DNA of 64,000 nucleotides. It comes from a virus (Duplodnaviria > Caudoviricetes). Positions 32,583 through 60,035 of this stretch are shown in pieces. Under the pieces are notes generated by a model. It was not told the origin of the DNA and ran no database searches. It saw nothing but the letters and a program-made list of their open reading frames with translations. The position numbers were made by a program, and so were the translations under genes. The first letter of the stretch is position 1; every line of letters begins with the position of its first letter. Where the stretch lies: IMG/VR virus record IMGVR_UViG_3300037067_024509, positions 18,724 to 82,723 of that record; one strand, given 5' to 3'.

Positions 32583-34256
32583 ATGGAATTCATACAACTA
32601 GATCTTGAATCTCTTAAGAATGAATACAATAATGGTAGTTCACTTAGAACTTTAGCATCAAAGTATGGCACATCTAAAATAACAATAAAGAGAAAATTAC
32701 TAAAGCTTGGGGTTAAGATAATAAGTTCTACTGAATTTATTGCTGATAAAGAAAGGCATAAGTTAGCATCGACTCCAATTAAAAAGTACCAAAAAAGTTT
32801 TGATGCTTTTTCTGATAAAAATACTAAAATTAATGCTTTTAATGATTTTTTAAAGAAAGCGAAATTATTACATGGTGATAAGTTTGATTATTCTAAATTT
32901 AATTATCAAGGATATAATATTAAAGGAATAATTATTTGTCCAATTCATGGTGATTTTGAGCAAACTCCAGAAATGCATATAGAAGGAGAATTTGGGTGTA
33001 ATAAGTGTTATAGAGAAGCTACAAGGATTGGATTTGCTGAATTTATTAAAAAAGCTAATGAGGTTCATCATGATAAATATACTTATACTGAACAACTTTG
33101 CAGATTCAAAGATGTTATAAAAATTATTTGTCCTATTCATGGCGAATTTGAACAAAAGGTATCAAATCATTTGAGTGGTAATGGGTGTCCACAATGTATT
33201 AATGATAGTAAAAAACTGGGACTTGATGAATTTATTAATAAAGCACAACATATTCATGGCGACAAATATGGTTATAATAATGTTGAATATATTAATAGTA
33301 AGACTAAAATAAATATTACATGCAAAAAACATGGTGAATTTAGTATTAAACCTTGCAGACATATTTATAATAACTCTGGTTGTCCAGAATGTGCTAAAGA
33401 AATTACTATATCTTCAACGCATCAACAGGTAATTGATTATATTAAATCTTTTGATATTGATTTTAAGATTAATGATAGGCATGAAATTAATCCTTATGAA
33501 TTAGATATATTTATTCCGAGTAAGATGTTGGCTTTTGAGATTAATGGTATATATTGGCATAGTTATAATAAGGTGGAATCTATTTATGAGAAGAACCGTC
33601 ATTTAATTAAGCATGATATGTGTGTTAATAAGAATATTAGGTTAATTCAGATTTTTGAATCTGAGATAATTGAGAAGTTTGAAATAGTTAAGTCATTAAT
33701 TAGGTCTAAACTTGGTGTTAATGATAGGTATTATGCTAGAAAGTGTCAGATAGTGGAATTAAATAGCAAAAGATTTAATGAATTTGTTGATATGACTCAT
33801 TTGCAGGGTAAGGTTAATACTTTATTAAAATATGGTTTAATGATGAATGATGAGTTGGTTTGTGCAATGGGATTTAATAGGCATAAAGAATATGAATGGG
33901 AAATATCAAGATTTTGTTCTAAATTGAATTTTAATACGGTTGGTGGTGCTAGTAGGTTATTTAATAAATTTATTAGTGATTGTAATCCAGGTAAAGTCAT
34001 GACTTATGCTGATAAGAGGTATTCTGATGGTAGATTATATAAAATTCTTGGGTTTAAGTTGTTAAAGTCTACTAAACCTGGATATTTTTATGTTAAGAAC
34101 TATGAAGTGTTTGATAGAAGGAAATTTCAAAAGCATAAGTTAAGTTCTATTTTAGAGAATTTTGATCCTATGTTGTCTGAAACTAATAATATGTTTAATA
34201 ATGGTTATAGGAGGTTGTGGGATGCTGGGCATTGGAAATTTATATGGGAGAAGTGA
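32583..34256 (+). CDS. Free-standing endonuclease A: HTH + 3 Zn-finger repeats + PD-(D/E)xK nuclease + GNAT-like domain (Hef-like)
   Basis: CPIHG.FEQ...GC..C repeats, YELDIFIP...FEINGIYWHS, GGASRLF, YADKRYSDG.LY..LGF. Confidence 0.8.
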   Translation: MEFIQLDLESLKNEYNNGSSLRTLASKYGTSKITIKRKLLKLGVKIISSTEFIADKERHKLASTPIKKYQKSFDAFSDKNTKINAFNDFLKKAKLLHGDKFDYSKFNYQGYNIKGIIICPIHGDFEQTPEMHIEGEFGCNKCYREATRIGFAEFIKKANEVHHDKYTYTEQLCRFKDVIKIICPIHGEFEQKVSNHLSGNGCPQCINDSKKLGLDEFINKAQHIHGDKYGYNNVEYINSKTKINITCKKHGEFSIKPCRHIYNNSGCPECAKEITISSTHQQVIDYIKSFDIDFKINDRHEINPYELDIFIPSKMLAFEINGIYWHSYNKVESIYEKNRHLIKHDMCVNKNIRLIQIFESEIIEKFEIVKSLIRSKLGVNDRYYARKCQIVELNSKRFNEFVDMTHLQGKVNTLLKYGLMMNDELVCAMGFNRHKEYEWEISRFCSKLNFNTVGGASRLFNKFISDCNPGKVMTYADKRYSDGRLYKILGFKLLKSTKPGYFYVKNYEVFDRRKFQKHKLSSILENFDPMLSETNNMFNNGYRRLWDAGHWKFIWEK

Positions 34257-34305
34257 TATTTTAGTGGTATAGTTTTTATAATGTTTCCTACGTATATAAA
34301 GTTCT

Positions 34306-35736
34306 ATGGAATTCGTTAAGTTAGATGTTGATTCTTTAAAGTCTGAGTATTTGGCTGGTTCTTCTCTTAGGTTTCTTGCTTCTAAATATGGTACGTCTAA
34401 GATGACTGTTAAGAGAAAATTGTTGAAGGTTGGTGTTAAGATTGTTAGTTCTGCTGAATTTGTTGCTGATAAAGAAAGACATAAATTATCGTCTACTCCA
34501 GTTAAAAAGTATGAAAATAATTTTATTATGTATTCAAATGATAGTATTAAGAAAGTAGCTTTTGATAATTTTGTTAATAAAGCTAAATCATTATTTGGTA
34601 ATAAGTTTGATTATTCAAAATTTGTTTATGATGGTCATAATATTAAAGGCATTATAGTTTGTCCAACTCATGGTGAATTTATTCAAACTCCTGAGATGCA
34701 TTTGCATTGTAAACGTGGATGTCCAAGTTGTTCTAAGGATTCTTTTAAGAGTAATTTAATTGAGAAAGAGTCTGAAGATAATGAACAAAGTGTTGGTAAT
34801 CCTGTTTCTTTAGAAAAGGCTTTAGATATTATTGATAAAGTGAGGGAATCGGCTAGTGTTAAACGTCAAGAGTATTTTGATAGTGAGTCTGTTAGGGATA
34901 GGGATGGTCAGCAGGAGATAGTTGATTTTATTAAGTCTTATGATATTAATTATGAAATTAAAGATGGTCGTAATATTTGTATTATGGATAAGAAGATATT
35001 CATAGAGTATTGTGGATTTTATAATCATAGTTTTAGTCATGAGGAGGTTACTAGTGACAGGAATATTCATTCTAAAAAAGCTACTTTGTGTTTGGATAAT
35101 GGTATTAGGTTGTTACAGGTTTTTGAAGATGAGTGGTTTAGTAAGAATAATGTTACTAAGTCTATTATTTTAAATAAGCTTGGGTTATCTAATAATAATG
35201 TTTATGCTAGGAAGTGTGAGATTATTGAGTTGTCTGCTTCTGATTTTAATGATTTTTGTAATGATTTTCATATTCAGGGTAAATTAAATTCTACTATTAG
35301 GATTGGTCTTTGTTTTAATGGTGAGGTTGTTTGTGTTATGGGTTTTAATAAGCATCATAAGTATTCTTTTGAGTGTACTAGGTTGTGTTCTCGTGCTAAT
35401 GTTTCTGTAATTGGTGGTCCTAGTAGGATTTTTAGCTATTTTATTGGCAAGTTTAAACCTGAATCTGTTTTGTCTTTTGCTGATAGGAGATATAGTGATG
35501 GTAATGTTTATAAGAAGCTTGGTTTTGAGTTATCTGGTATTACTGATCCTGGATATTTTTATGTGAAGGGTACTAACAGATATTCTCGTCAGATGTTTCA
35601 GAAGCATAAGCTTAGTAATAGGTTGAGTGATTTTGATGAGTCTCTTTCTGAGACTAAGAATATGTTTAATAATGGTTATCGTAGGTTGTGGGATGCTGGG
35701 CACTGGAGATTTGTTTGGAAAAATATTGTTAAGTAA
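34306..35736 (+). CDS. Paralog B of endonuclease A: 1 Zn repeat, degenerate nuclease, intact GNAT-like domain
   Basis: N-terminus near-collinear with A; the ELD segment is missing. Confidence 0.8.
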   Translation: MEFVKLDVDSLKSEYLAGSSLRFLASKYGTSKMTVKRKLLKVGVKIVSSAEFVADKERHKLSSTPVKKYENNFIMYSNDSIKKVAFDNFVNKAKSLFGNKFDYSKFVYDGHNIKGIIVCPTHGEFIQTPEMHLHCKRGCPSCSKDSFKSNLIEKESEDNEQSVGNPVSLEKALDIIDKVRESASVKRQEYFDSESVRDRDGQQEIVDFIKSYDINYEIKDGRNICIMDKKIFIEYCGFYNHSFSHEEVTSDRNIHSKKATLCLDNGIRLLQVFEDEWFSKNNVTKSIILNKLGLSNNNVYARKCEIIELSASDFNDFCNDFHIQGKLNSTIRIGLCFNGEVVCVMGFNKHHKYSFECTRLCSRANVSVIGGPSRIFSYFIGKFKPESVLSFADRRYSDGNVYKKLGFELSGITDPGYFYVKGTNRYSRQMFQKHKLSNRLSDFDESLSETKNMFNNGYRRLWDAGHWRFVWKNIVK

Positions 35737-35752
35737 TTGTCAAATTTAGTTT

Positions 35753-36163
35753 GTGAATATAACTATTAAGAATAAACTTGTTGTGATAGGGAATCAGTTA
35801 TTAGTCCCTGGTTTAGAGCCTTTGAGTACACAAACTAGTAATATGTTAACTATTTTTATGCAGGGATATAATTCTTATCTTCCTGTTGAGGAAGCTTTAA
35901 AATTGATTCCTGGTTCTAGGGTTGTTAAGGATCAACTTAGTTTTGGCACTTTTGGTAGTTATAAGTATTTTGAACTTCCTAATGGTCCATCTCCTGATGG
36001 CAGTTGTCCTAGTAAGTGTATTGATGATTGGTATAAGATTTTAAGGGATGCTGCTCAGAATGCTCCTAGTACTCAACAGGGACCAGTTGAATGTGAAGCA
36101 TATGATAATAATGCTTGTGATACTAATGATTATTCGTCTGACCTTGACCCATTTAAGAGATAA
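35753..36163 (+). CDS. Hypothetical protein (neck region)
   Basis: 136-aa ORF; TCAAATTTA-N4-GTG. Confidence 0.6.
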   Translation: MNITIKNKLVVIGNQLLVPGLEPLSTQTSNMLTIFMQGYNSYLPVEEALKLIPGSRVVKDQLSFGTFGSYKYFELPNGPSPDGSCPSKCIDDWYKILRDAAQNAPSTQQGPVECEAYDNNACDTNDYSSDLDPFKR

Positions 36164-36165
36164 AC

Positions 36166-36774
36166 ATGTCAAACCATAGATTCGATTTTGATGATGAGTT
36201 GCAACAATCATATTCATCGTTGCAGGATGCTAAAGACAATAGAACTGATGAACAGAAGAATTCTTCTAAGATTGCTATTTATGATCATTCTAATCCTGAA
36301 ATTGCTAATATGGAAATGGAGGCACTTAATTTAATTAATGATTCTGGTGCTCCTACTTTGGTATATCGTCGTTCTGATGATACTGGTCAGACTGATGATG
36401 GTTATAATGAGACTACTCCTCAATATTTAGAACCTGATAATATTAAAGCTATATTCAAGCCTGAACAGGTATCTTTGTCTAAGGTGAAATGGGGTATTGA
36501 TGTTAATATTAAAATGACTTTAAGTTATTCACGTGCTTATCTTCTTGGATTGTATGGGTCTAGGCTTATCAAAATTGGTGATGTTGTTGCTGTTCCTCAT
36601 AATACTTTGATTCAGACTCAATCTACTGAGTATCTTGAGGGTAAAGTTAATAGACTTGATAAGTTTAGAATTATTAATAGTTTTGATGCTGGTAATTTCA
36701 ATTATCGTTGGTTATATTGGAATTGTATAGCTGAACCGATAAGTGGTGATATAGTTATAATACCACGTAGATAA
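36166..36774 (+). CDS. Head closure/neck protein (gp14-like)
   Basis: EALNLINDSG, LSKVKWGID, KIGDVVAVP, plus synteny. Confidence 0.65.
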   Translation: MSNHRFDFDDELQQSYSSLQDAKDNRTDEQKNSSKIAIYDHSNPEIANMEMEALNLINDSGAPTLVYRRSDDTGQTDDGYNETTPQYLEPDNIKAIFKPEQVSLSKVKWGIDVNIKMTLSYSRAYLLGLYGSRLIKIGDVVAVPHNTLIQTQSTEYLEGKVNRLDKFRIINSFDAGNFNYRWLYWNCIAEPISGDIVIIPRR

Positions 36775-36784
36775 AATTTAATTT

Positions 36785-37948
36785 ATGCTTTTGTCTTGTA
36801 TTAACAGTGATTATATAATAATATATGAGAATATTGAGAAGAAGAAACCATATATTATCAAAGCACTAACAGATGCAGGAATAGAAGACCAAGATAATAT
36901 AGTAGACTATCTAGTTAAAGCTGATCCAGTAGCTAATAAATCAGGTGGTAAGAAAACACCATTCATTAACCTAATACTCAAATGGCTAATTAATAACAAA
37001 ATTAGATTACCAGAGGATATTGATACTGTTAGTGAAATATTAAGTAAAGCTAATGATTTAGTTAATAATAAAGGGGTTAAGTTAGATATTAATAATTATG
37101 AATCACCAGGGGATTTAAGAAAAGATGTTAATGAGAAATTGGGAGTTGTTGAGAAGGGGACTTATGATTATCTTGAGTTAGTTGATCAGATTCCTGGTTT
37201 TAAATTGTATAAGGTTAACTCATGGGAAGAAGGGGAAAGAGCATTTAAGGATAGTGGTTGGTGTGTACAACGTAAGAATCATTTTGATGGCTATGATCTT
37301 CCTTATTTTATGGTTGTTACTAGTGATGATAAGCGTTATGCGTTAATGCATAAGGATAGTAATCAGATTAAGGATGTTCATGATAATAGTTTAACAATTG
37401 ATAAAGCTATTCCAATTAAGAAATTTATATTAGAGACATGGCCAAAATTCGTTTATAGTAGTGATTTAATATCCATTAATGATTTATGGCCTGGAGCAAT
37501 AAATGAGATAAAGAAGAATCCAGAATGGGCTTATACATATGCTCATGAAGTTATTAAGGGTAAATGGCCAGAAGGTGAAGAAGCTATTAAGCAAGATCCA
37601 GAATGGGCTTATAAATATGCTCGTTATGTTATTTATGATAGGTGGCCAGAAGGTGAAGAAATCATTAAACAAGATCCAGGATGCGCTTATCATTATGCTT
37701 ATCAGATTATTGGTGGTAGGTGGCCAGAAGGTGAAGAAGCTATAAAAAAAGAACCAGAATCAGCTTATACATATGCTTGTTATATTATTAAGGATAAGTG
37801 GCCAGAAGCCGAAGAAACTATTAAAAAAGATCCACAATGGGCTTATCGGTATGCCAGTAATATTATTGAGGGCAGATGGCCAGAAGCAGAAGAAACTATA
37901 AAACAAGATCCAGAATATTGGAGTTTATATAAGGCTAAGTTTTTGTGA
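36785..37948 (+). CDS. Protein with C-terminal 26-aa helical repeats
   Basis: N-terminal domain with SGWC motif; WPEGEEAIKQDPEWAYxYA repeats. Confidence 0.75.
   Translation: MLLSCINSDYIIIYENIEKKKPYIIKALTDAGIEDQDNIVDYLVKADPVANKSGGKKTPFINLILKWLINNKIRLPEDIDTVSEILSKANDLVNNKGVKLDINNYESPGDLRKDVNEKLGVVEKGTYDYLELVDQIPGFKLYKVNSWEEGERAFKDSGWCVQRKNHFDGYDLPYFMVVTSDDKRYALMHKDSNQIKDVHDNSLTIDKAIPIKKFILETWPKFVYSSDLISINDLWPGAINEIKKNPEWAYTYAHEVIKGKWPEGEEAIKQDPEWAYKYARYVIYDRWPEGEEIIKQDPGCAYHYAYQIIGGRWPEGEEAIKKEPESAYTYACYIIKDKWPEAEETIKKDPQWAYRYASNIIEGRWPEAEETIKQDPEYWSLYKAKFL
37487..37945 (+). repeat. Six in-frame 78-bp coding tandem repeats
   Basis: Unit starts (TGGCC) at 37487, 37565, 37643, 37721, 37799 and 37877. 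Confidence 0.95.
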
Positions 37949-37964
37949 TAATAAAATTTAATTT

Positions 37965-38222
37965 ATGGCAGTAACTCACAATTGGAATGATGTTAGACAG
38001 GGTGTTATTAATACTATATCTACGCATATTAAAGATTTTAAGAAAAATGCATTAGAAGATATAAGAATTAAATTAAATGATAAAGGAATTCCAAAAGTTG
38101 ATGTTAAAAGTAGCTCTGTTGAGTTTGTTGCTATATCAAAAACTGAATATGATTTAGGTAAAGTTTATTTTGATGAGGTATTCAAAGATATTAATAGCCA
38201 ATCTTGGATTGACAATATATGA
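37965..38222 (+). CDS. Small hypothetical protein
   Basis: 85-aa ORF. Confidence 0.6.
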   Translation: MAVTHNWNDVRQGVINTISTHIKDFKKNALEDIRIKLNDKGIPKVDVKSSSVEFVAISKTEYDLGKVYFDEVFKDINSQSWIDNI

Positions 38223-39115
38223 CAGTTCACAAATTTGATTTTAATCAGGGCCAGGAAAAATTGGATCAATTTATATCTTTAACTTCTGATGATCAAAATA
38301 AGGCTAGTCCTGATCCTGGCAGCCCAGTTAATAAAGATGATAGAGATGATTTATATTATGGTAAATCTGAACCACAATTAGCTAATAATTTTGTTGATGA
38401 CAATATTGATATTAATTATGTTGAAGAAGTTAGAGAAACATATATTAATGGTTTTGAATTTATTGATATTGCTATAAAGAATTATTTTAGTGGTATTAGG
38501 ATACCTACTAATAAAAAGGGAACTGAAGAATATAGGATGATGAATGTTAAAATTGCAGGTGGTGAATCTGCTACTCTTATAACTGATAGAGAATTACGTA
38601 GTGGTAGATTATCATTACCTGCTTTGGCTATTACTAGAACTGGTGAATCTCCTGATTCTAAAAGATTTTCTCCCCCATATGGTAGTGTTGCTAAGAAATA
38701 TAAAAACAATGGTAGAAGGGTTGAGTTAATTTATAGACCTAATCCATATCTTATAGATTATTCTTTGGAAATATGGACTGAATATAAGAGTGATGCTGAA
38801 TTTGCTGTTTATTCAATATTATCTAGATTTAATCCATTAGCTTCATTTTATTTAAATGATGTTACAGGATTGTCGCTTGAAGTTGTTATGAAAATAATGA
38901 GCAGTACTGATAATAGTGATCTTGAATCTGATCTGGAAACTCATGCTAAGATTAAGAAGACTATTAATATTCAGGTAGAGGGATGGTTGCCTCTTGCGAC
39001 TAAAGTAGTTCCAACTATACTATCTAAGCCTACATCAGTTAAGGAAGCAGTTATTGGTTCTAATAACATTTTATATGGTGGAGAAACGTACTTAGTTAAT
39101 AGAGATAGGACATAA
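38219..39115 (+). CDS. Tail terminator/completion protein (gp15-like)
   Basis: LPALAITR, PNPYLIDYSLEIWT...ILSRFNP, plus synteny. Confidence 0.7.
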   Translation: MTVHKFDFNQGQEKLDQFISLTSDDQNKASPDPGSPVNKDDRDDLYYGKSEPQLANNFVDDNIDINYVEEVRETYINGFEFIDIAIKNYFSGIRIPTNKKGTEEYRMMNVKIAGGESATLITDRELRSGRLSLPALAITRTGESPDSKRFSPPYGSVAKKYKNNGRRVELIYRPNPYLIDYSLEIWTEYKSDAEFAVYSILSRFNPLASFYLNDVTGLSLEVVMKIMSSTDNSDLESDLETHAKIKKTINIQVEGWLPLATKVVPTILSKPTSVKEAVIGSNNILYGGETYLVNRDRT

Positions 39116-39116
39116 T

Positions 39117-39491
39117 ATGACTGACATGGCTACTCCATCAAAAAAACCTTTATCAATTAAAGAGATCCGTAAGATTAAGGATAATAGGCGTAAGACTGAA
39201 TTAAATAAATTGAGAATTTATAATATTTCAAAACTTCAAGTTATTAATATTCAGATGTATGGTAAGAATTCTAAGTTAGTCCCTTATCAACAGTCTATTC
39301 AAATAGCTCCTGGTAAGCATGTTGATCTTCCTGCATCAAGATTAATTAGTGAACAGATTGATAATTTAAGAAAAAGTGGGTTTATTACTACTATGAAGGT
39401 TGATAGTAGTAAGCAAATTGCTAGTTCTGATTTATTATCACAAATTTCAAAGACTGTTAAGCCTAATAAGCTTAAAATTTTAAAGAAATGA
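39117..39491 (+). CDS. Hypothetical protein upstream of the sheath gene
   Basis: 124-aa ORF. Confidence 0.6.
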   Translation: MTDMATPSKKPLSIKEIRKIKDNRRKTELNKLRIYNISKLQVINIQMYGKNSKLVPYQQSIQIAPGKHVDLPASRLISEQIDNLRKSGFITTMKVDSSKQIASSDLLSQISKTVKPNKLKILKK

Positions 39492-39495
39492 TTAA

Positions 39496-43063: not shown

Positions 43064-43104
43064 TTTGTCCCAGGAGTATTTAACTCCTGGGACAAATTGT
43101 TTTT
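43064..43104 (+). terminator. 14-bp hairpin after the tube gene (terminator, possibly also a translational control hairpin)
   Basis: TTTGTCCCAGGAGT-attta-ACTCCTGGGACAAA then TTGTTTTT. Confidence 0.8.
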
Positions 43105-44673
43105 ATGATAGACTGGCAAAAGACTAATGAATTATTTGGAATATTAGAAAATACAGTAACTTCAAAAGATAAAATAGTTGTAATTTGTAATAGTTGTAAA
43201 TCAATACGTAATATATCATATATTACATATAAAAATCAAATAAGATTAACTGGTAGTGATGATTGTCAATCATGTAAAGGTAAGGCTAATAGAATAAAAT
43301 ATTCAGATTCATATAAATTAAGTGATGAAAATAGGTCAAAATCATTATCATTAACAATGAAGAAAAAATGGGAAAATGAACAATATAAAAATGAACAAAT
43401 AAATATATTTAATTCTGACATTAATAAAGAAAAATTGTCGAATGCATTAAAGGATAAATGGAAAGATGAAAATTATAAAAATAAAATAATTTCATCTATT
43501 AGATATAATTGGAATGATGAAGAATATAAAAATAAAATGAAGATTATACATGATAGTAAAGAGTTTAAGGTAAAATCAAAACCAAAATTGTCAAAAGAAC
43601 AGTTATTAAAATTAAAAAATGGTGTAAAAGAAAAATGGAAAGATAAAGATTATAAAAATATTCAATCATTATCTAGAATAGGTAAAATTACTAGTGATAA
43701 AACTAAAAAGAAATTACATGATATAATGTTATCAAAATGGCAAGAACATGAATATAAAACAAATGTTTGTATTGGAAGAGAAAAAATTAAAGGTAATGAA
43801 TCATCAATAGAAATTATTTTATATAGTATATTGGATGATCTTGGATTAAAATATATTAAGCAATTTAGAATTGGTTTTTATTTATTTGATTGTTTTTTAC
43901 CTGATTATAATATTTTAATTGAATGTAATGGTGACTATTGGCATTCATTAAATAAAGCGATTAAAAATGATAAAACTAAATCTTCATATATTATTAATAA
44001 TTTTCCGCAATATAAATTATACACAATATGGGAACATGAATTTAAATGTAAGGATAAAATAATTGAATTAATTAAATATTGGACTGGTGTTAATATTGAT
44101 TTGATTGATTTTGAATTTAATAATTTAATTATTAAAGATATTAGTTTGAAGGACGCTAAATTATTTGTTGATAAATATCATTACTCTGGAACTATTGGCA
44201 ATACTGTATATAGGTTTGGTTGCTATCTTGGCAATGAATTGATAGCTTTGTGTAATTTTGGTAATACTACTAGAAATGAATCTGCTACTAGATTAAATAT
44301 TAAGTTTTGTGAACTTCTTGAATTGACTAGATTTTGTATTCACCCAAAATATCAAAAGAAGAATTTTGCATCATGGTTTATTAGTAGATGTATTAATGAT
44401 ATTAAACATTTAAATAAATATAAATGTTTAATATCATTTGCTGATAATACCTATAATCATGATGGTATTATTTATAAAGCATCAAATTGGAAAATAGATG
44501 GTATTGTTGATCCTTCTTACTGGTATGTTGATACTAATGGTTATGTCATGCATAAGAAAACTTTATGGAATCATGCAACTCAGATGAAAATGTCCGAGAA
44601 TGAATTTGCAAATAAATATGGATATATTAAAGTTATTGGTAAGGAGAAAATTAGATATATTTATTGGTTATAA
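43105..44673 (+). CDS. Free-standing endonuclease C: Zn ribbon + basic helical repeats + Vsr/DUF559-like nuclease + Mom-like GNAT domain
   Basis: SSIE...QFRIG.YLFD...IECNGDYWH; YHYSG, ELTRF, ISFAD...HDGIIYKASNW. Confidence 0.8.
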   Translation: MIDWQKTNELFGILENTVTSKDKIVVICNSCKSIRNISYITYKNQIRLTGSDDCQSCKGKANRIKYSDSYKLSDENRSKSLSLTMKKKWENEQYKNEQINIFNSDINKEKLSNALKDKWKDENYKNKIISSIRYNWNDEEYKNKMKIIHDSKEFKVKSKPKLSKEQLLKLKNGVKEKWKDKDYKNIQSLSRIGKITSDKTKKKLHDIMLSKWQEHEYKTNVCIGREKIKGNESSIEIILYSILDDLGLKYIKQFRIGFYLFDCFLPDYNILIECNGDYWHSLNKAIKNDKTKSSYIINNFPQYKLYTIWEHEFKCKDKIIELIKYWTGVNIDLIDFEFNNLIIKDISLKDAKLFVDKYHYSGTIGNTVYRFGCYLGNELIALCNFGNTTRNESATRLNIKFCELLELTRFCIHPKYQKKNFASWFISRCINDIKHLNKYKCLISFADNTYNHDGIIYKASNWKIDGIVDPSYWYVDTNGYVMHKKTLWNHATQMKMSENEFANKYGYIKVIGKEKIRYIYWL

Positions 44674-45652: not shown

Positions 45653-45854
45653 ATCCCTAGAGTCACAGTATTGGGCGATATGGGAGCATATATTTATACT
45701 TAAGGAATATTGTGACTTTAGTTTACAAGAATTAAAATTAATGACTGGTGAAGAAAGAACGTGGTATATTGAGAGATATAATAAGGAGCAAGAAAAGAGA
45801 CAGGCAGAGGAAAAGAAGGCTTATAGAAGATCTTCACCTAATGTTAGACGATAA
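45618..45854 (+). CDS. gp51-like small chaperone ORF, probably reached by frameshift
   Basis: SLESQY...F.L...FSLQEL..M...ERTWY; no in-frame ATG/GTG or SD before the conserved part. Confidence 0.7.
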
Positions 45855-47857
45855 TGAATATATTAGAATTTATTGATAAGGCTAATTATATTCATAATAA
45901 TAAATATAATTATTCAATAGTTAACTATATAAATAATAAAATTAAAGTTAAAATTATTTGTAAAATTCATGGTGAATTTGAGCAGACACCAAATAGTCAT
46001 CTTTGTGGTAGTGGTTGTCCAAAATGCTACATTAATAATATGATGTTATCACAACAAGAATTTATTGATAAAGCTATAAAGGTTCATGGTAATAAATATA
46101 ATTATTCTAAAGTTGATTATAATGGTAGTCATAATAAAGTTAAAATTATTTGTCCAATTCATGGAGAATTTGAACAAATTCCTACTGGTCATCTTTGTGG
46201 TAAAGGGTGTCAAAAATGTAAGATTGATAAGATAACATTGTCACAACAAGAATTTATTGATAAAGCTATAAAGGTTCATGGTGATAAATATGATTATTCT
46301 AAAGCTAATTATAAATGTAGTGATTATAAAGTTAAAATTATTTGTAAAATTCATGGTGAATTTGAGCAGACGCCAAATAGTCATCTTCGTGGTAAAGGAT
46401 GTCCAAAATGTGGTATTGAAAAATTATCTTCAACTGGACAAAGATTTATTGATAGGGCCAAAAAAGTTCATGGTGATAAGTACGATTATTCTAAAGTTAA
46501 TTATACTCGTCATCATAATAAAGTTAAAATTATTTGTCCGATTCATGGAGAATTTGAACAGACACCATTTGGTCATTTAAATGGTCAGGGATGTAAAAAA
46601 TGTGCTATTGATAATATGATATTATCGGAACAAGAATTTATTGATAAAGCTAAGAAAGTTCATGGTGATAAATATAATTATTCTAAAGTTAATTGTAAAT
46701 ATGTTCATAATAAAGTTAAAATTATTTGTCCAATTCATGGAGAATTTGAACAAAGAACATCTAGCCATTTAGATGGCAGTGGATGTAAAAAGTGTGCTAT
46801 TGAAAAATCTTCTTTATCAAAACAAGAATTTATTGATAGGGTTATAAAGATTCATGATAATAAATATGACTATTCAAAAGCTAATTATATTGGTTGTCAT
46901 AACAAGATTAAAATTGTATGTCCTGTTCATGGAGAATTTGAACAAATAGCTGGCTATCATTTAATTGGTCGTGGTTGTAAAAAATGTGGTAATGAAGTTA
47001 CTATTTCTAAATCACATCAAGAAATAATTGATTTTATTAAAGAAGATAAAAATATAAATGATCGAGAAATTATAAAGCCATATGAATTAGATATTTTTAT
47101 TCCTTCTAAAAATATCGCAATTGAATTTAACGGTGTATACTGGCATAGTTATGGTGAATTGGAAACTAAAAAAGAACGTTATAAACATTATGATAAAACA
47201 TCTACCTGTTTTGATAAAGGAATTAAATTAATTCAAATTTTTGAAGATGAGTGGATTAACAAAAAAGATATTATTAAATCTATTATTAATTCTAAATTAG
47301 GAATTAATAATAGATTATTTGCTCGTGAATGTGAAATTAAAGAATTAAATAATAAAGAATTTAATATTTTTTGTAATAATAATCATATTCAGGGCAAATT
47401 AAACTCAATAATTAAATTAGGATTAATTTATAACAATAAAATAGTTTGTATAATGGGTTTTAATAGGCATAAAAAATATAGTTATGAATGTACTAGATTT
47501 TGTAATATGTTAAATATTAATGTAATTGGTGGTGCGAGCAAATTATTTAAATATTTTATTAATAAATATAAACCAAATTCTGTTTTGTCTTATGCAGATA
47601 GAAGATATAGTAATGGTAATTTATATGAAAAACTTGGATTTAAATTGGCTGGAATTACTAATCCAGGCTATTTTTATATTAAAGGTATATGTAAATATTC
47701 ACGTAAACAATTTCAAAAATATAAATTAAAAAAGAAATTAGACAATTTTAATAATGATTTGTCAGAAGCACAGAATATGTTTAATAATGGTTATCGTAGA
47801 TTATGGGATGCTGGACATTGGAAATTTGTTTATAATTTTGGAAAATATATTATATGA
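45854..47857 (+). CDS. Free-standing endonuclease D: 6 Zn-finger repeats + PD-(D/E)xK nuclease + GNAT-like domain
   Basis: Six CxxHGEFEQ...GCxKC units; YELDIFIP...[10 protein letters not shown]; RRLWDAGHW. Confidence 0.82.
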
Positions 47858-49407: not shown

Positions 49408-51531
49408 ATGGATTTCATTGACCGGTTAAAATTAATTCTTGAAGCGCCTGAAGATGATATTGATTCTGGAATTGAGCCAGAAGATGAAGGCGATATTGAG
49501 CCAGAAGGTGAATCAGATGTTCCTGAAACAGCTAAATCTGAAGATGGTGAAAGTGAAAAATCTGAAGTTGAAAAATTAGTTGATAAAGAGCAAGGTGTTG
49601 TTGATTGGACAGGTATACCAGATCCTACTCCTGGTAAGAGTATAGTTGATTTAAAAAGTGTAAGGAAACCGCTTGAAAATGGTTGGACTACAGAAGAGGT
49701 TATTTCAGCGCTTAAACCTACTATTCTTTTCTTTGCTAAGAAATATTCTACACCGACATTTAGTGTAGAAGATGGTATTGCTGAATGTATGACTGGTGTT
49801 CTTACAGCATTAAAAAATGATAAAGGATTATCAGCATTTACTACTCATGTATATCGTTATCTTTCAACATCTGCTCAAAGAGGGGCTGGTAAAGCTTCTA
49901 ATGTATCTGGAGTACCACAGACTAAGGGTGGTAAATATGACTTTTTAGCTGCTTCTCGTGCTACTGTTAGTGCTGATACTCCAATGCCTTCAGAAGGAGA
50001 TAAAGAAGAAACTTATTCTAGTCAAATTGAGAGTCACTATGGTAAAGCTGGTGAGTCAGCAGCAAAACAGCGGTCAATGGCTAAACTTATTAAGCATTTC
50101 CTTAATGCACCATCTGTTGGATTATCAGATAAAGAAAAATTGATATTACAATTAACTTATGGTATATCTGAAGATGGTAAAATTAAAGAACCTAAATCGA
50201 CTAAAGAATTAGCTGATACTCTTGGAGTATCATTAGTTAGAATAAGTCAAATTCGTACTGGTGCTATTAATAAAATTAAAGAATATATTGATGCACGTAA
50301 ATTCTCAAGTGAAGAGCAAGCAGCGGAGAAACTTGGACTTGAAGAATCTAAATTATTAGCAATAGCTAAAGGATTATTGAATATAATTAAAGAAACAATT
50401 CAGCTTGAAATAGATATATTATCAGAAAATCAAATAATAAAAATTGAATCAAACCATCGTGGAATTAATGAGACAGTATCAATTATAGTTGATACTGTCT
50501 CATTAGAAGTTAAAAATGCAATAAGTGAAAACAATGAAAGTGTACTTGGTGAAATTAGTAAATCATTACTTGATGAAGCTACTAGTATTGCTAAATCAAG
50601 AGTATCAAAAGAATATTTCTGTGAGATGGTCAACAATGTTATTAGCATGCAAGCTCAACCAATTTTAGCAACTATTAATAATTCATTATCAGTTAATCAG
50701 ATACCATTTAGATTTTTAAGAAATCGTGGTATAGAGAAAGCAATGGGCGATGCTGAAAAGAAAGTATTTGGCAAAAGAAATATTGAAGATGCTGTATATG
50801 AAAGTAATGGAGATGTTAGAGAAATAACATGGTGGTATCCAATTAAGTATAGATCAGAAATTAGCAAAATGCGTGATATAATGGGTAAAAAAGGTTTTAT
50901 AATGAAGGAAAATGTTGGCAGTAAATTAAGAAGTGGAACTTATGTAACTGAAGTAAATGTTCCATATTTAAATAATGAAGGTAATACAACATATAGAGTT
51001 GAATTTTTAATATATGGTGAATTTTTAGAAGAAACTGAAATAATAAGAATTGATGATGTTGATACTGGTGATAGGAATATTGATTTAGTAACTGTTGATC
51101 TTGATACAATTGAAAAAGCTATTAATGAGAAAATTAAGTCTGGTGAGATACATAAAATATCAGATGATGAAGATAATGAAGATAATTTAACAGTAAGAGA
51201 GAATATAGAAGATTTAGCACCTGTTGCTAAAGAATCCCCAAGATATGAAAGAATGTTTTACGAATTATCGCCAGAAGAGCAGAATGTTTTGAATAATATT
51301 AAAACAGTTGATGATTTAAAATCAGTTGAAGTTGTTGGTGAATGGTCTGATGATCATGTTCCTTGTGTTGGTGTTAAAATAAATGGTGTAGAGATAGGGT
51401 TTTGGTGGTTAGATAATAGTGGTATAGCTGCTTTTCATTATCCTGATAGTGGAAAAGCGAAGCAGACTATTGTTGATATCATAATTGATCAAATTAAAAT
51501 GTATAACGAGGATCCAGACAATAATATTTAA
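49408..51531 (+). CDS. Sigma-70-family factor (regions 2 and 4) with acidic N-terminus and ~400-aa C-terminal extension
   Basis: AKKYS...VEDGIAE...GVLTAL...FTTHVY; LSDKEKLILQLTYG...STKELADTLGVSLVRISQI...AINKIK. Confidence 0.8.
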   Translation: MDFIDRLKLILEAPEDDIDSGIEPEDEGDIEPEGESDVPETAKSEDGESEKSEVEKLVDKEQGVVDWTGIPDPTPGKSIVDLKSVRKPLENGWTTEEVISALKPTILFFAKKYSTPTFSVEDGIAECMTGVLTALKNDKGLSAFTTHVYRYLSTSAQRGAGKASNVSGVPQTKGGKYDFLAASRATVSADTPMPSEGDKEETYSSQIESHYGKAGESAAKQRSMAKLIKHFLNAPSVGLSDKEKLILQLTYGISEDGKIKEPKSTKELADTLGVSLVRISQIRTGAINKIKEYIDARKFSSEEQAAEKLGLEESKLLAIAKGLLNIIKETIQLEIDILSENQIIKIESNHRGINETVSIIVDTVSLEVKNAISENNESVLGEISKSLLDEATSIAKSRVSKEYFCEMVNNVISMQAQPILATINNSLSVNQIPFRFLRNRGIEKAMGDAEKKVFGKRNIEDAVYESNGDVREITWWYPIKYRSEISKMRDIMGKKGFIMKENVGSKLRSGTYVTEVNVPYLNNEGNTTYRVEFLIYGEFLEETEIIRIDDVDTGDRNIDLVTVDLDTIEKAINEKIKSGEIHKISDDEDNEDNLTVRENIEDLAPVAKESPRYERMFYELSPEEQNVLNNIKTVDDLKSVEVVGEWSDDHVPCVGVKINGVEIGFWWLDNSGIAAFHYPDSGKAKQTIVDIIIDQIKMYNEDPDNNI

Positions 51532-54232: not shown

Positions 54233-54242
54233 AATATAGTTT

Positions 54243-54827
54243 ATGGCAATACCTAAATCAGTACGTGAAAGAATACATCGGAGAACTAGATCAAAAAAAG
54301 TTACTCCACAAGGTACTGATTTACCAGGAAGAATAGCAGTAAAAAAAACAGCTAATAATGATCCCAAAAATAGTGATGTAGATGAAAAGAAATTTATGGA
54401 AGACATAATAAAATTTTATAAAGGTGGAGAACCAATAATAGATGAAGACATAATAAAATTAATAGATATATTAATAAATGAATCAATTGAAGGAAATGGA
54501 ACATCGCCATTAAAAATTGAACGTTTAAATGAAATGAAAGATATTGTAAAAAACAAATTATTCAAAGAATCATCAGATGATCCAGAAATACAATTATCAT
54601 TCAAAATAAGTACGCGTAATAAATCAACTGCTCAGGGAATAAAAGATTTAATAATAGCATTAGAAGCATTAGGATCATGGGGATGCAGTAGAGAAGTAAA
54701 ATTATATTTTGATGGCGATGGTCATAATAGATTAAAAATAAATGAATTACAAGTAACTGGTGCAGAACTTGAAGATAATAAAATAAACTCTGATATGGAT
54801 ATAATAACTATTGGATCTTTTGATTAG
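54243..54827 (+). CDS. Hypothetical protein
   Basis: 194-aa ORF; AAAATATA-N4-ATG. Confidence 0.6.
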   Translation: MAIPKSVRERIHRRTRSKKVTPQGTDLPGRIAVKKTANNDPKNSDVDEKKFMEDIIKFYKGGEPIIDEDIIKLIDILINESIEGNGTSPLKIERLNEMKDIVKNKLFKESSDDPEIQLSFKISTRNKSTAQGIKDLIIALEALGSWGCSREVKLYFDGDGHNRLKINELQVTGAELEDNKINSDMDIITIGSFD

Positions 54828-54839
54828 TATATATAATAT

Positions 54840-55418
54840 ATGGCAGATCAAGAGGAAAAATTAGATCCTGACTTACAAGCTTTAATGTCTGAGCTTGGTA
54901 AAGTAGAAGGTGAAATAAAGACAGAAATAGAATCGAAACAAATAGAAGAACAAAAACCAGTAGAAGAGCAAAAACCAATAGAAGAAATAGCTGTAGAAGA
55001 ACCAAAATTAATATCACCAGAAATAGTAAAACATGTTGAAGTTGAACAGGTAGGTATAGCAGATAAAGAGAAGGTAAGAATACAATCAAAACTTATAGGA
55101 TTAATAGATATACACTGTGATAACGCTGTTAAAATAATAGAAGATGTTGAATCAGATAGAAGAAAATGTGATGATGTATACAATATATTATACGCAAAAG
55201 TCCAAGATGGTGATTATAGAGCATCTGATATTGCAGCATTAGTATCAGTTTTACAGACAAAGGGTGACATCAGCAAGACTAGATCGGATATGATGGATTC
55301 TGTTGCAAAGATGTTGGCATCAATTAAGAATAATAATACTGTTCCTACAGATCCTAATAATGGGAATGGAGATTTGTCACAAGAAGATATTAAAAAATTA
55401 TTATCTAATGAACCATAA
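54840..55418 (+). CDS. Possible terminase small subunit
   Basis: Helical protein immediately upstream of TerL once the inserted endonuclease gene is ignored. Confidence 0.4.
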   Translation: MADQEEKLDPDLQALMSELGKVEGEIKTEIESKQIEEQKPVEEQKPIEEIAVEEPKLISPEIVKHVEVEQVGIADKEKVRIQSKLIGLIDIHCDNAVKIIEDVESDRRKCDDVYNILYAKVQDGDYRASDIAALVSVLQTKGDISKTRSDMMDSVAKMLASIKNNNTVPTDPNNGNGDLSQEDIKKLLSNEP

Positions 55419-55419
55419 A

Positions 55420-56784
55420 TTATATTTTTAGAATATACTTGATAAGACCGGCATCCCAATATTTTTGAAATTTATAATTTACTTTTACTTTGTTTTTGTT
55501 ATATTGTCGATCTCCTTTAATATAAAAATAATTAGGCTTTGTAATTTTTAATAATTTGAATCCTGATTTTTTATGAAAATTATCAATATTATATCTTCTA
55601 TTTATATTGCTTATTATTACTTTTGGTTTTGTTTTATTAATAAAATAACGTAATAATTTATTTGCTCCATTTATAATATTAATGTTTAATTCGCTTGAAT
55701 ATCTTGTTAATTTCCATTCGTATTTTTTATACTTATTGAATCCCATAACGTATACTAATTTATTATTAATTATTAGTCCTAATTTGACATGTGTATTAAT
55801 TTTACCTTGTAAATTAGTTCTTATAGTAAATTCATTAAATTCTTTATTTGATAATTCTTTTACTTTACATTTAGATGCATTAACTTTAGTTGATATGTTA
55901 ACTTGTGATAATATTATTGATTTGATTATATCTTTATAATATCTCCATTCATAATCGGTTATTTGTAATAATTTTATTCCTAATTTATCACATAGATCAT
56001 GTTTTAAGTTATGTTTAAATTTTGATTTATTAAAATATGAGTGCCAGTATACTCCGTTATATTCTATAGCTAATTTGTAATCTGGTAAATATATATCTAA
56101 TTCATATGGCTTAATTATTGATCTTGAATTTCTAATTATTTTTATATTGTTTAATAAATTAGTTATTTCGCTTTCTCCTTTTGATATTATATTAATACAT
56201 TTTGGACATCCATGACCTTTCAAATGGTTACTTGGTGTTTGTTCAAATTCACCATGAATTTGACATATAATTTTAACTTTAATACGATTAGTATCATAAT
56301 TTATTAATGAATAATTATATTTATTACCATGAATTAATTTAGCTTTATTAATAAAGATATCTTTTGTTGATTTATTATATAAATTGGATTTTATATGGCC
56401 ACATTTTGGACATCCTTGTCCACATATATGTTTATTCGCTAATTGAATAAAATCTCCATGTATTGGACATGTTATAATTAATTTATTTTTTAATCCTGTA
56501 TATATTGTTTTTGTATAGTCGTATTTATTTTTATGTTTAATATTGGATTTTAATATAAAATGTTCTTTATTATTGATTTTATGTGAACAACAACATTTTA
56601 TACACCCATGTCCTTTTAAATGTGAATTTAAAACTTGTTCAAATTTACCATGTACTGGACATACTATATTGTTTTTATATGATGTTAATATTTCATTTGA
56701 TGTTTTAGAATAAATAAGTTGTGAATAATCATATTTATTACCATGTATTTGTTTGGCTTTTTCAATAAACAAATTTATATTCAT
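55420..56784 (-). CDS. Free-standing endonuclease E: 3 Zn-finger repeats + PD-(D/E)xK nuclease + degenerate GNAT-like domain
   Basis: YELDIYLP...IEYNGVYWHS; WDAG; inverted relative to its neighbours. Confidence 0.8.
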   Translation of the reverse strand: MNINLFIEKAKQIHGNKYDYSQLIYSKTSNEILTSYKNNIVCPVHGKFEQVLNSHLKGHGCIKCCCSHKINNKEHFILKSNIKHKNKYDYTKTIYTGLKNKLIITCPIHGDFIQLANKHICGQGCPKCGHIKSNLYNKSTKDIFINKAKLIHGNKYNYSLINYDTNRIKVKIICQIHGEFEQTPSNHLKGHGCPKCINIISKGESEITNLLNNIKIIRNSRSIIKPYELDIYLPDYKLAIEYNGVYWHSYFNKSKFKHNLKHDLCDKLGIKLLQITDYEWRYYKDIIKSIILSQVNISTKVNASKCKVKELSNKEFNEFTIRTNLQGKINTHVKLGLIINNKLVYVMGFNKYKKYEWKLTRYSSELNINIINGANKLLRYFINKTKPKVIISNINRRYNIDNFHKKSGFKLLKITKPNYFYIKGDRQYNKNKVKVNYKFQKYWDAGLIKYILKI

Positions 56785-56786
56785 AT

Positions 56787-58709
56787 ATGATTACTAAAGA
56801 ACAAAAGAAGGAGATTCTTAGGAGATGTAAAGAGTCTCCTACATACTTTATTGAAAATTTTTGCAAAATCAAGCATGCAAACGCCGGTATTATTCCTTTT
56901 AGGCTATTTAAATACCAAAAAGCTTCTATTAAAAAGTTTCAGGAGAATGATAGGTTAATTTATTTAAAATGCCGTCAGAGTGGTATTTCCACCCTTACTG
57001 GTGCTTATTCGTTGTGGACGGCGATGTTTCATCCTAATAAGAAGATTTTGATTGTTAGTAAGAGGGATGAGGATGCTATTGGATATTTAGATAGGAATAT
57101 TAAGTTTGTTTATGAAAATTTGCCTTCTGAGATTTTTCATTGTGTTTTTGGTGATCCTAGGTCTGGTATTAATAGGAGATATCCACCGCCTAAGTTGTGG
57201 AATGAGCATACTGTTGGGTTTTTTCATGGGTCTGAGATTAAGTCTTTAACTAGTTCTAAGGATACTCTACGTTCTAATACTGCTTCACTTGTCATTATTG
57301 ATGAGGCTGCTTTTATTCCTGAAATGGAATCGATGTGGACCTCTGGCCAACCTACATTAATGCACGGTGGCCGGGTTATAGTAATAAGCACGACTAATGG
57401 ACGTGGTGGATGGTACCATAATACTATTGAGGATGCTAAAGAACATAAAAATTCGTTTGAAGTTATAGAAATTCCATGGTATAATATGGATTGGAGTATA
57501 GAATATACTGATGATATTACAAAGAGGAAAATAAGAATTGCACCTTGTGATGGTATAACAAAGTGTGTAACTGAAGAAGATAAAGCAAGATATGGTGAAT
57601 ATAAGAGTCCATGGTTAGAAATACAATATAGGGAGTTACAAGAGAAAGGTGAACCATGGAAATTCAGACAAGAAATATTAATGGAATTTATTGGAGCAGG
57701 AAATACGGTTCTTGATACTAATGCAATAATAAGAGTATCAGAAGAAGTTGATAGTAATTTTAAAGTAGTTGAAAGACCAATATCGTATGTAAATCCAAAT
57801 CTTAGCGAAAAATATTATTTAGATTTTGCTAAATGTTTATGGATATGGAATATGCCAGAAAGAAGAAGATCACCAATAATAGATGCATTAAGTAAAATAA
57901 TAAAACCAGGAGATGATGGACATAGATATGTAATAGGTGCTGACGTTTCAACTGGAGAATCAACAGACTATCATGCAGCAGAAATAATAGATGTAACATC
58001 ATCGGAACAAGTAGCAGAATTAAAAATTAGATGTACAATAGATGAATATTCAAGAATGCTAGATTATTTAGGAAGATATTATAATAATGCATTATTGGTA
58101 GTAGAACGTACAGGCGTAGGGGAAGCAGTATTACAAGATCTTAGAAATATATTATATTACCAAAACTTATTTTATAGAAGATTGCCAAATGGTAAAAAAG
58201 ATAAGAAACCAGGATTCCCAACTGGATCAACAACTAAGGGATTTATCGTAAAAGCAATAACTGAAAATATAGGTGCAGAAGATAATAGAGGAATAAAATT
58301 CAAATCATCAAGATTAATAAGAGAGTTAAATTGCTTTATTCATTTAGGAAATGGCAGAATAGGAAATGAACCAGGAGCAGGAAATAATGATGACTTAGTA
58401 ATAGCTGCTGGACTTGCATGTATGGCAATAGTTGAAGCAATGCAAACACCAGATGGTTTATTGCCAGTAAATTCTAAAAATATAACAGACTCAATTGATG
58501 AAAAAATAGATGCAACACTTGATGATATGATACAAAAAGGTGGACATGGATTAATGTATCCAATAATGTCAACCAGTGATGAATCATTAGAAAAAACTTC
58601 AGAAGAAATGATAATGCAATTTGTAACTCAATTAGGTGGAATATCACCAGAAATGATAGAAAAAAAGAAAGCATTGCTACCAGTTAAACCATCTAAAAAA
58701 TATTTCTAA
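56787..58709 (+). CDS. terL: Terminase large subunit (gp17-like)
   Basis: LKCRQSGIST, IIDEAAF, ISTTNG, IGADVS.G, VER.GVG, DDLV. Confidence 0.95.
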   Translation: MITKEQKKEILRRCKESPTYFIENFCKIKHANAGIIPFRLFKYQKASIKKFQENDRLIYLKCRQSGISTLTGAYSLWTAMFHPNKKILIVSKRDEDAIGYLDRNIKFVYENLPSEIFHCVFGDPRSGINRRYPPPKLWNEHTVGFFHGSEIKSLTSSKDTLRSNTASLVIIDEAAFIPEMESMWTSGQPTLMHGGRVIVISTTNGRGGWYHNTIEDAKEHKNSFEVIEIPWYNMDWSIEYTDDITKRKIRIAPCDGITKCVTEEDKARYGEYKSPWLEIQYRELQEKGEPWKFRQEILMEFIGAGNTVLDTNAIIRVSEEVDSNFKVVERPISYVNPNLSEKYYLDFAKCLWIWNMPERRRSPIIDALSKIIKPGDDGHRYVIGADVSTGESTDYHAAEIIDVTSSEQVAELKIRCTIDEYSRMLDYLGRYYNNALLVVERTGVGEAVLQDLRNILYYQNLFYRRLPNGKKDKKPGFPTGSTTKGFIVKAITENIGAEDNRGIKFKSSRLIRELNCFIHLGNGRIGNEPGAGNNDDLVIAAGLACMAIVEAMQTPDGLLPVNSKNITDSIDEKIDATLDDMIQKGGHGLMYPIMSTSDESLEKTSEEMIMQFVTQLGGISPEMIEKKKALLPVKPSKKYF

Positions 58710-58733
58710 TCATTTTGTTGGTATTTCATAAAT

Positions 58734-60035
58734 GTGATTAATTGGGTTAGAACTAAAGAAGTATTTCCAAATTTTACGTTTAATATTTTTAGACCTAAAA
58801 TTGTAGTTAATTGTGATAAATGTAATAAAGAGGCAATATATACTGTAAGAGTAAAATCGAAATTAATAAATAATAATATAAATTGGATATGTCAAAAATG
58901 TATTTGTATTAAAATAAGCAATCAATTAAGTAAATTAACTAAAAAATCATGGAAAAACAAAGAATATAAAGAAAAAATAACAAATCTTAGTAAAGAACTA
59001 TGGAAAAATGAAGAATATAAAATAAAGCATAACATAGCAGTTAATACTAAATTAAATAAAAAGAAATGTTCAGATTCAGCCATAAAAGCATGGACCGACA
59101 AAGAATATAGAATTAAACATGTAAATGCAACAATTAACCAATTCAGAAAAGTACCAAGTACAACTGAATTGGTATTAATAAAAATACTTGATGACCTAAA
59201 AGTAAAATATCAGCATCAATATTTAGTTGGACCATATTCATTTGATTTTATAATATATACAAATAAAAAACCAATATTATTAGAAGCTAATGGAGATTAT
59301 TGGCATACAAGACCAAATATTGTTAAAAAAGACAAAGCTAAAGAATCATATATAAATTCAATAGACTTATATAATTTTAAAGTAATTTGGGAATCAGAAT
59401 TAGTTGATCATGAAAAAATAATAACATTATTAAAAGATTGGGTAGGCATATCTAAATTAAAATCTAAAAATATAAAATTTAATGATTTAAGTTTTTCTGA
59501 AATAGATAGATCAATATATAGCAGATTTTTTGGTTGTTATCATTATTTAGGTAGTTCAGGTAGAGATGGAATATCTTATGGTGGATATGTGAACGATGAT
59601 TTGGTGTGTTGTGCTATATTATCACATCCAATAAAGACAGAATTGTATTCAAAATTTTCATTAATTAAAAAGCAATGTTATGAATTGACTAGGATAGCTA
59701 TATCACCATTTTATTTTAATAAAAATTTAAAATCATTATTTCTGTTAAAATTAATAGAATATATTAAACAGCATCATAAAGATATTAAATTAATTAGTTT
59801 TGTTGACCAAATTGATAGTGAAGAAATATACCAAAATTGGGAATTTGATGAAGTTATAAAATCGTCATATTTTTATATTAATGATAAAGGCTGGAAAATG
59901 CATGTTGATACATTATATAAGAAAGCAAGAGGAATGCATTTAAGTGTAGATGAATATGCTAAATTATATAAGTATAAAATAGTTGATCAAAAATTGTTTA
60001 AAAGGTATATTTACCATATTGATAATTCAAAGTAA
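58734..60035 (+). CDS. Free-standing endonuclease F, paralog of C, with degenerate Mom-like domain
   Basis: PSTTE...QYLVGPYSFD...LEANGDYWH; YHYLG, ELTRI. Confidence 0.78.
   Translation: MINWVRTKEVFPNFTFNIFRPKIVVNCDKCNKEAIYTVRVKSKLINNNINWICQKCICIKISNQLSKLTKKSWKNKEYKEKITNLSKELWKNEEYKIKHNIAVNTKLNKKKCSDSAIKAWTDKEYRIKHVNATINQFRKVPSTTELVLIKILDDLKVKYQHQYLVGPYSFDFIIYTNKKPILLEANGDYWHTRPNIVKKDKAKESYINSIDLYNFKVIWESELVDHEKIITLLKDWVGISKLKSKNIKFNDLSFSEIDRSIYSRFFGCYHYLGSSGRDGISYGGYVNDDLVCCAILSHPIKTELYSKFSLIKKQCYELTRIAISPFYFNKNLKSLFLLKLIEYIKQHHKDIKLISFVDQIDSEEIYQNWEFDEVIKSSYFYINDKGWKMHVDTLYKKARGMHLSVDEYAKLYKYKIVDQKLFKRYIYHIDNSK

Follow-up and report, generated by a model that had tools for sequence, protein, structure and literature searches.

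Six predicted Hef-type homing endonuclease genes with Mom-like C-terminal domains in the virion gene cluster of an uncultured jumbo T4-like phage

Investigation of a 64,000-nucleotide stretch of viral DNA (Duplodnaviria; Caudoviricetes; positions 18,724 to 82,723 of the IMG/VR record IMGVR_UViG_3300037067_024509, hereafter the window) revealed six paralogous open reading frames (ORFs), A to F, which are interspersed with baseplate, sheath, tube, terminase and portal genes and together occupy 9,345 bp (Table 1); the six ORFs with their limits and their extent of about 9 kb, to which an earlier note on this DNA had drawn attention, were all confirmed. Judged from their sequences and their distribution, A to F are very probably six free-standing homing endonuclease genes of the Hef type (Vsr-like EDxHD nucleases), belonging to two sublineages and inserted at intergenic junctions of the late virion cluster. 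Common to all six is the order of an N-terminal DNA-binding array, a nuclease of the Vsr/EDxHD type and a C-terminal GNAT domain, which resembles the DNA-modifying protein Mom of phage Mu.

The six genes add no new kind of element, the family and the nuclease-Mom fusion having been described already, and both the cut-and-protect model and the weapon model for such fusions are in print (PMC7824862). Few mobile genes are as common in large phages as the Hef-like genes, nearly all of which are annotated merely as 'homing endonuclease', a label that hides a conserved Mom-type domain. Since Mom has been shown to use a charged tRNA on DNA (PMC13219725), working chemistry of this kind in thousands of homing endonucleases is a concrete and testable question. 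The window presents a natural allelic series of two to three apparently intact copies, one with a predicted dead nuclease and two with predicted dead Mom-like domains, and the junctions of close relatives that lack the elements are candidate targets.

The shared nuclease and Mom-like module

Full-length matches of A, B, D and E to PHROG 559 and PHROG 3339, annotated as 'HNH endonuclease' and 'homing endonuclease', had E-values from 1e-86 to 1e-165. The number of treble-clef zinc repeats (DUF723/DUF4379) in these four proteins ranges from one to six. An N-terminal helix-turn-helix (HTH) is present in A, as a weak match to HTH_58, and in B, which has an acidic linker in place of two zinc repeats. 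The earlier note had divided the six into two subfamilies, with C and F as a subfamily of helical-repeat proteins. The N-terminal arrays do differ and the helical repeats of C and F are present, but C and F also open with a Cys4 zinc ribbon and both groups carry the same Vsr/EDxHD nuclease.

Regarding this nuclease, the motif (E)xD ... ExNGxxWH(S/T) and the C-terminal domain following it can be aligned across all six copies, and the alignment of a profile of 31 Hef-type sequences with C spans both the nuclease and the Mom domain (hhalign probability 98.9%, E 1e-17). Searched against the sequences of the PDB, the Hef profile matched the catalytic domain of the homing endonuclease I-Bth0305I (3r3p, 8e-6), and residues D413 and H431 of D align with D196 and H213 of I-Bth0305I. 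The same structure was the top fold match of the modelled nuclease of D (residues 383-490, predicted local distance difference test (pLDDT) 90), with a template modelling (TM) score of 0.68-0.76, followed by E. coli Vsr (1vsr, 1cw0). The nuclease residues E411, D413, E424 and H431 are conserved in 96-100% of 124 Hef sequences, and the catalytic residues are present in A, C, D, E and F but not in B. The nuclease and Mom-like module of A/B/D/E is thus homologous to that of C/F, and only the N-terminal DNA-binding arrays set the two groups apart. Two independent nuclease chassis, as proposed in the earlier note, are ruled out by the hhalign alignment, the profile match to 3r3p and the nuclease fold matches, and with a single shared nuclease the argument that convergence of two chassis makes the tail functionally central falls.

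Regarding the tail itself, C and F match the Pfam family Mom PF25680 (107 bits, E 1e-30, and 42.9 bits, E 6e-11, respectively, against a curated cut-off of 27.1 bits), and C also directly matches the sequence of the Mu Mom crystal structure 8bv8 (2.6e-7). No family, PF25680 included, was detected when the tails of A, B, D and E were scanned against Pfam on their own, and the search of PDB sequences with the Hef profile reached the nuclease only (3r3p) and not Mom, so that the link of these four tails to Mom rests on hhalign and on structure. In a Foldseek search the model of residues 385-667 of D (pLDDT 95.5) matched Mu Mom (8bv8) best and, after it, many GNATs (probability 1.0), and in VIA-align comparisons residues 491-667 of D (model residues 107-283) matched many GNATs with Z of 11.5-13 and a root-mean-square deviation of 2.2-3.6 over 120-140 residues. 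According to these models the tail has a GNAT fold, with Mu Mom as its nearest solved relative, which bears out the acetyltransferase-like tail of the earlier note; the refuting condition that the note had named, a C-terminal domain without a GNAT fold, does not hold.

Mu Mom forms a dimer, has an HTH-like insertion that binds DNA and moves glycine from Gly-tRNAGly onto the N6 of adenine; it cannot do without R111, S124, D149, R151 and the helical insertion, and H58, Y59 and Y159 are also important (PMC13219725). An acyl-CoA pocket is therefore not the expected test for the tails. Among 124 Hef-type sequences the equivalents of H58, R111 and Y159 are conserved in 99-100% and that of R151 in 95%, and a Ser beside the position of S124 is conserved in 92%. 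A, B and D carry R, this conserved Ser, D and R at the putative equivalents of R111, S124, D149 and R151, and C carries R, S, D and Thr. Among representatives of the C type (n=141) a series of H, Y, R, N, S/T, D, H and Y is near-invariant. The module of nuclease and C-terminal part is present in 415 sequenced phages at 30-47% identity, and on clustering at 90% the Hef-type tail matches at least 2,706 protein clusters, while the C-type Mom domain matches 2,112 representative clusters. The tail matters to the protein, since it is strongly conserved across thousands of homologues; to this extent the functional weight given to it in the earlier note stands. Because its Mom-like active-site residues are near-invariant, the tail is most likely an enzyme predicted to act on DNA next to the nuclease.

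Table 1. Position, domain layout and matches of the six ORFs (positions are those of the window; tildes mark approximate limits; AF2, AlphaFold2)
Gene	Position	Strand	Length	N-terminal region	Nuclease	C-terminal domain	Matches and remarks
Hef A	32583..34256	+	557 aa	HTH, three treble-clef zinc repeats	~33411-33734	Mom-like GNAT, ~33735-34253	PHROG 559, 2.6e-117
Hef B	34306..35736	+	476 aa	HTH, one zinc repeat, acidic linker	decayed, ~34900-35205	Mom-like, 35206-35733	Tandem paralogue of A
Mom-type C	43105..44673	+	522 aa	Cys4 ribbon, W/E/Y/K helical repeats	~43798-44094	Pfam Mom, 44095-44670	Pfam Mom, 1e-30; PDB 8bv8, 2.6e-7
Hef D	45854..47857	+	667 aa	Six treble-clef zinc repeats	47006-47320	Mom-like GNAT, 47321-47854	PHROG 559, 1e-165; AF2 models with pLDDT 95.5 and 90
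Hef E	55420..56784	-	454 aa		~55879-56184	Mom-like, 55423-55878	Antisense, packed between a 192-aa gene and TerL
Mom-type F	58734..60035	+	433 aa	Cys4 ribbon, helical repeats	~59160-59453	Pfam Mom, 59454-60032	Pfam Mom, 5.8e-11; between TerL and portal; stop at 60035

Condition of the six copies and occupancy of their junctions

The family consensus residues are kept in both domains of A, C and D. B is the sole sequence without equivalents of the nuclease residues E411 and D413, its metal-binding Asp being replaced by Asn, and its Mom-like domain is intact; B and A are 39% identical in the nuclease and 55% in the Mom-like domain, and the comparison of B with both A and D gives 39-47% for the nuclease and 55-65% for the Mom-like domain, i.e. 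the nuclease is the more diverged of the two. In its Mom-like domain E alone deviates at four near-invariant positions (H to N, G to N, S to N and Y to H), and it has in addition a change of D to N and a deletion of about 16 residues in the helical insertion; the equivalents of S124, D149, H58 and Y159 are gone, and the nuclease motif is intact. In the Mom domain of F a T and an H that are invariant in its subfamily are replaced by Ile and Glu and two 2-aa deletions lie near the active site; its nuclease is intact, and its orthologues at the TerL-portal junction retain the Mom consensus. Going by these residues, the six copies represent different stages in the life cycle of homing genes, A, C and D being apparently intact, B probably nuclease-dead and E and F with putatively degraded Mom-like sites.

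Regarding the distribution of the genes, a search with the portal returned 80 related viral contigs. About 45 kb of the window is colinear with the closest relative, G001 (169.6 kb), whose proteins are 60-86% identical and which lacks C, D, E and F at the corresponding junctions: 117 bp separate its tube and hub genes, 16 bp lie between the homologue of u47854 and the small gene that precedes D in the window, u54840 overlaps TerL, and the gap between TerL and portal is 42 bp. G001 has copies of its own elsewhere; one of them, a C-type gene with 53% identity to C, lies at a junction where the window has an empty 58 bp. D is also absent in L004, E is absent in L001, L002 and L004, and F is absent in L001, L002, L004, L011, L016, L020 and L033. 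F-type genes occupy the same TerL-portal junction in L006, L007, L013 and L018 (portal identity 49-67%); L006 and L007 have an additional plus-strand Hef gene before TerL, whereas L011, L016, L020 and L033 have neither a Hef gene there nor an F-type gene.

Within the lineage itself, the same phage is represented by contigs from public metagenome runs of other studies (landfill, groundwater). One of these contigs, from run X5 and about 98% identical, lacks E, position 55435 being joined to 56775 with 6 other letters between them, and others span TerL, F and portal intact. The joints between reads and contigs that were used are those of the X5 contig bridging the E site and of the long contigs spanning F and C; most other joints were disregarded, having sides of 20-26 letters and linking paralogous Hef sequences or other organisms. 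A second X5 contig, covering 55418-56355 of the window, has 'opposite strands' and 'goes back' joints inside E and may represent a rearranged or differently oriented Hef copy at the E site in another strain.

The Hef copies have a guanine plus cytosine (GC) content of 20-30%, compared with 32% in the surrounding virion genes, and are tightly packed: D overlaps both of its neighbour genes (TAATG and ATGA), and C lies between the terminator of the tail tube gene and the hub-like gene. This terminator is a strong, 14-bp GC-rich hairpin at 43064-43096, with C beginning 9 bp later, and G001 has a hairpin of different sequence in the same place after its tube gene. A is taken to start at the ATG at 32583; the TTG upstream at 32538 is an unlikely start because B opens with the homologous MEF... 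sequence. No further copy or remnant of the family was detected in the window or in the remainder of the record.

The phage encodes a UvsX recombinase, and the occupancy, the low GC content, the tight packing and UvsX together are what one would expect to see with free-standing homing endonuclease genes. The placement that the earlier note had called typical of such genes is supported by the junction sites and by the sporadic presence and absence across related phages. Among the neighbours it had named, tube, terminase and portal genes were found, but apart from a gp15-like protein none could be named as a 'chaperone' or 'neck' gene.

The slot of A and B is a variable region (32537-35753 in the window, compared with 66180-71791 in G001 and 4181-9792 in L083), which in G001 contains a 297-aa tail-fibre-like gene and a 1130-aa gene of no known family. 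A 387-aa gene of the window (36785-37948) also has no counterpart in G001.

Relatives of the fusion and possible roles of the Mom-like domain

Hef ('homing endonuclease-like function') of the T-even phage U5 is located between nrdA and nrdB and is reported to cleave nrdB, near its own locus (PMC2988022 and PMC3322345, citing Sandegren et al. 2005). In coliphage FL18, which is T-even-like, a member of the present family was detected at the nrdA-nrdB locus, the match extending over the nuclease domain of the query and the greater part of its Mom-like domain; the link to U5 Hef rests on this locus of a related coliphage and on the secondary citations. Hef-type phage enzymes were assigned to the Vsr-like EDxHD family by Taylor et al. 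2011 (PMC3239194), and Hef-like genes of Dickeya phage LIMEstone1 adjoin baseplate and tail tube genes (PMC3296691). Fusions of Mom with a restriction endonuclease (REase) were described in jumbo phages, with five copies in PA5oct (Iyer, Anantharaman, Krishnan, Burroughs, Aravind 2021, PMC7824862), and one GenBank record labels a member of the family as 'putative nuclease/acetyltransferase protein'. In the literature searched, no paper testing the function of the Mom-like half and no biochemical data for any fused member were found.

The same nuclease and C-terminal module is present in the known Hef and Hef-like genes (PHROG 559/3339; U5, Campylobacter Hef, F-LimIII, VII, VIII and X of LIMEstone1, AR9, and Acinetobacter and Proteus T4-like phages), which, like A to F, are free-standing, intergenic, often near virion genes and often multicopy; A to F differ in their uncultured jumbo T4-like carrier, in the number of N-terminal repeats and in that three of the six copies lack key residues of one domain. 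The earlier note had set 'ordinary Hef-like' endonucleases against a fusion, an opposition that does not hold: A to F are Hef-like, and the Mom-like tail is the normal architecture of the Hef family. I-Bth0305I (EDxHD, 3r3p) has the nuclease fold and catalytic residues found here and is likewise modular with a separate DNA-binding region, but it is intron-encoded, binds DNA through NUMOD/HTH and has no GNAT domain. With Mu Mom the tails share the GNAT fold, the helical insertion between the last strands and the equivalents of H58, R111, D149 and Y159, and in A, B and D that of R151; unlike Mu Mom, they follow a nuclease within one fused protein, the GNAT G-G-A loop is more canonical in the Hef-type proteins and the C-type proteins have Thr at R151. 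T4 seg/mob genes are also inserted between conserved genes, patchily distributed and presumed to spread by recombination, whereas their nucleases are unrelated (GIY-YIG, HNH) and lack a modifying domain.

By analogy with U5 Hef, I-Bth0305I and T4 seg/mob, the DNA-binding array of A to F would steer the nuclease during co-infection to a site in or beside a conserved neighbour gene of an element-less genome, and recombinational repair, possibly with the UvsX of the phage, would then copy the element and its flanks into that genome. The most economical role of the Mom-like domain would be to modify the carrier's own target and so to confer immunity. As a tentative and rather doubtful proposal, the domain might be an active, locally acting modifier of DNA bases that uses an aminoacyl or acyl donor to immunize the target site of its carrier. 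If so, these genes would be the first homing elements whose self-protection relies on chemical modification and not on a change of the target sequence, copies like B would be protection-only antidotes, and E and F would rely on protection in trans or on divergence of the target.

Several observations weigh against homing by an element with a Mom-like enzyme. The A/B slot holds different genes in G001, so that clean insertion is not demonstrable there. In the sole pairwise alignment the conserved Ser is one residue off S124 of Mom, the equivalent of D149 is D in 78% and N in 20% of the 124 Hef-type sequences, and the 141 C-type proteins have a conserved Thr at the position of the essential R151 of Mu Mom; with this Thr and with Asn in 20%, chemistry identical to that of Mom is not assured. 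Finally, the frames of E and F are open and their nuclease motifs intact despite the degraded Mom-like sites. It follows that Mom-like activity would not be required in cis for persistence, and E and F argue against an obligatory coupling in cis of nuclease and Mom-like activity.

The persistence of E and F with degraded sites is also consistent with a Mom-like domain that is no longer an enzyme and instead, as an exapted GNAT fold, assists an ordinary homing endonuclease in DNA binding, base flipping or dimerization, an explanation regarded as possible though on balance unlikely. The lack of an R151 equivalent in the C type and the Asn found in a fifth of the Hef proteins at the D149 equivalent would fit such a helper, and the fold could supply both functions, Mu Mom being a dimer with a DNA-binding HTH-like insertion (PMC13219725). 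However, the equivalents of R111, R151, Y159 and H58 and the Ser beside S124 are near-invariant among sequences that are only about 50% identical, and B retains all Mom-like residues after losing the metal-binding Asp of its nuclease, its Mom-like domain having diverged less than the nuclease.

Iyer et al. 2021 (PMC7824862), whose fusions have the same architecture, multiplicity per genome and protect-and-attack idea, read them as conflict systems resembling restriction-modification. In such a weapon the Mom domain would mark adenines throughout the phage genome, the nuclease would destroy unmodified DNA of the host or of competitors, and paralogues would widen the sequence coverage. The precedent of PA5oct, the conserved Mom-like catalytic residues and the presence of several copies per genome speak for a role of this kind, which is nonetheless unlikely for A to F: long DNA-binding arrays (3-6 zinc repeats) suggest rare, long targets, U5 Hef is reported in the sources given above to cut close to where it resides, and three of the six copies are predicted to lack one of the two activities. 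The patchy, junction-specific occupancy, with copies at differing sites in close relatives, points to homing-type mobility and fits selfish spread better than a maintained defence set. Domesticated genes that serve the phage in competitor-marker exclusion or late-gene regulation, and are not active mobile elements, would account for the tight operon packing with overlapping stops and starts and for the intact copies kept at the TerL-portal junction in several relatives, but are very improbable given their absence from the closest relatives without visible replacement, their low GC content and the decay in B, E and F.

The carrier phage and other features of the window

The window is the final 64 kb of an 82.7-kb IMG/VR record with a CheckV completeness of 23%, a value that makes the source a jumbo phage. 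Its portal, a protein of the T4 gp20 type, shares no more than 32% identity with the portal of any sequenced isolate, and a megablast search of 4.7 kb against sequenced phages gave no match, hence the phage has no close cultured relative; the carrier belongs to an uncultured lineage of jumbo T4-like phages. The GC content of the window is about 29%. The region from 29.7 to 64 kb holds the baseplate wedge, the gp15-like sheath stabilizer, sheath, tube, a hub-like gene, a sigma-like gene, an SNF2-type helicase, TerL and portal. A tRNA scan of the window detected none, so that it offers no clue from a phage tRNA-Gly, and a promoter scan gave no excess over shuffled sequence and its result was not used. 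DNA near-identical to positions 54800-61000 was present in groundwater, landfill and other metagenome runs of four studies, and the lineage is therefore widespread in subsurface or leachate habitats.

Regarding other mobile or added modules, a gene for a DNA polymerase III alpha-like protein (836-4651, plus strand, 1271 aa) is interrupted at about residues 395-836 by an intein that contains a LAGLIDADG homing endonuclease (Pfam Intein_splicing 6e-17, LAGLIDADG_3 6e-13), and a glycosyltransferase gene (19931-22825, plus strand, 964 aa) has a Hint/intein and LAGLIDADG insertion at about residues 543-890. The homologue of the latter in G001 has only 626 aa, so that the glycosyltransferase intein is also present or absent between relatives. 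A 707-aa protein encoded at 49408-51531 (plus strand) has sigma-70 region 4, more weakly region 2, and a NUMOD-like motif, compared with a length of 537-679 aa in relatives, and is possibly a sigma factor of the phage that has gained a DNA-binding module. The TerL ORFs of the relatives L013 (4916-8653) and L020 (6569-9982) have 1245 aa and 1137 aa, respectively, compared with 640 aa in the window, and probably contain inteins.

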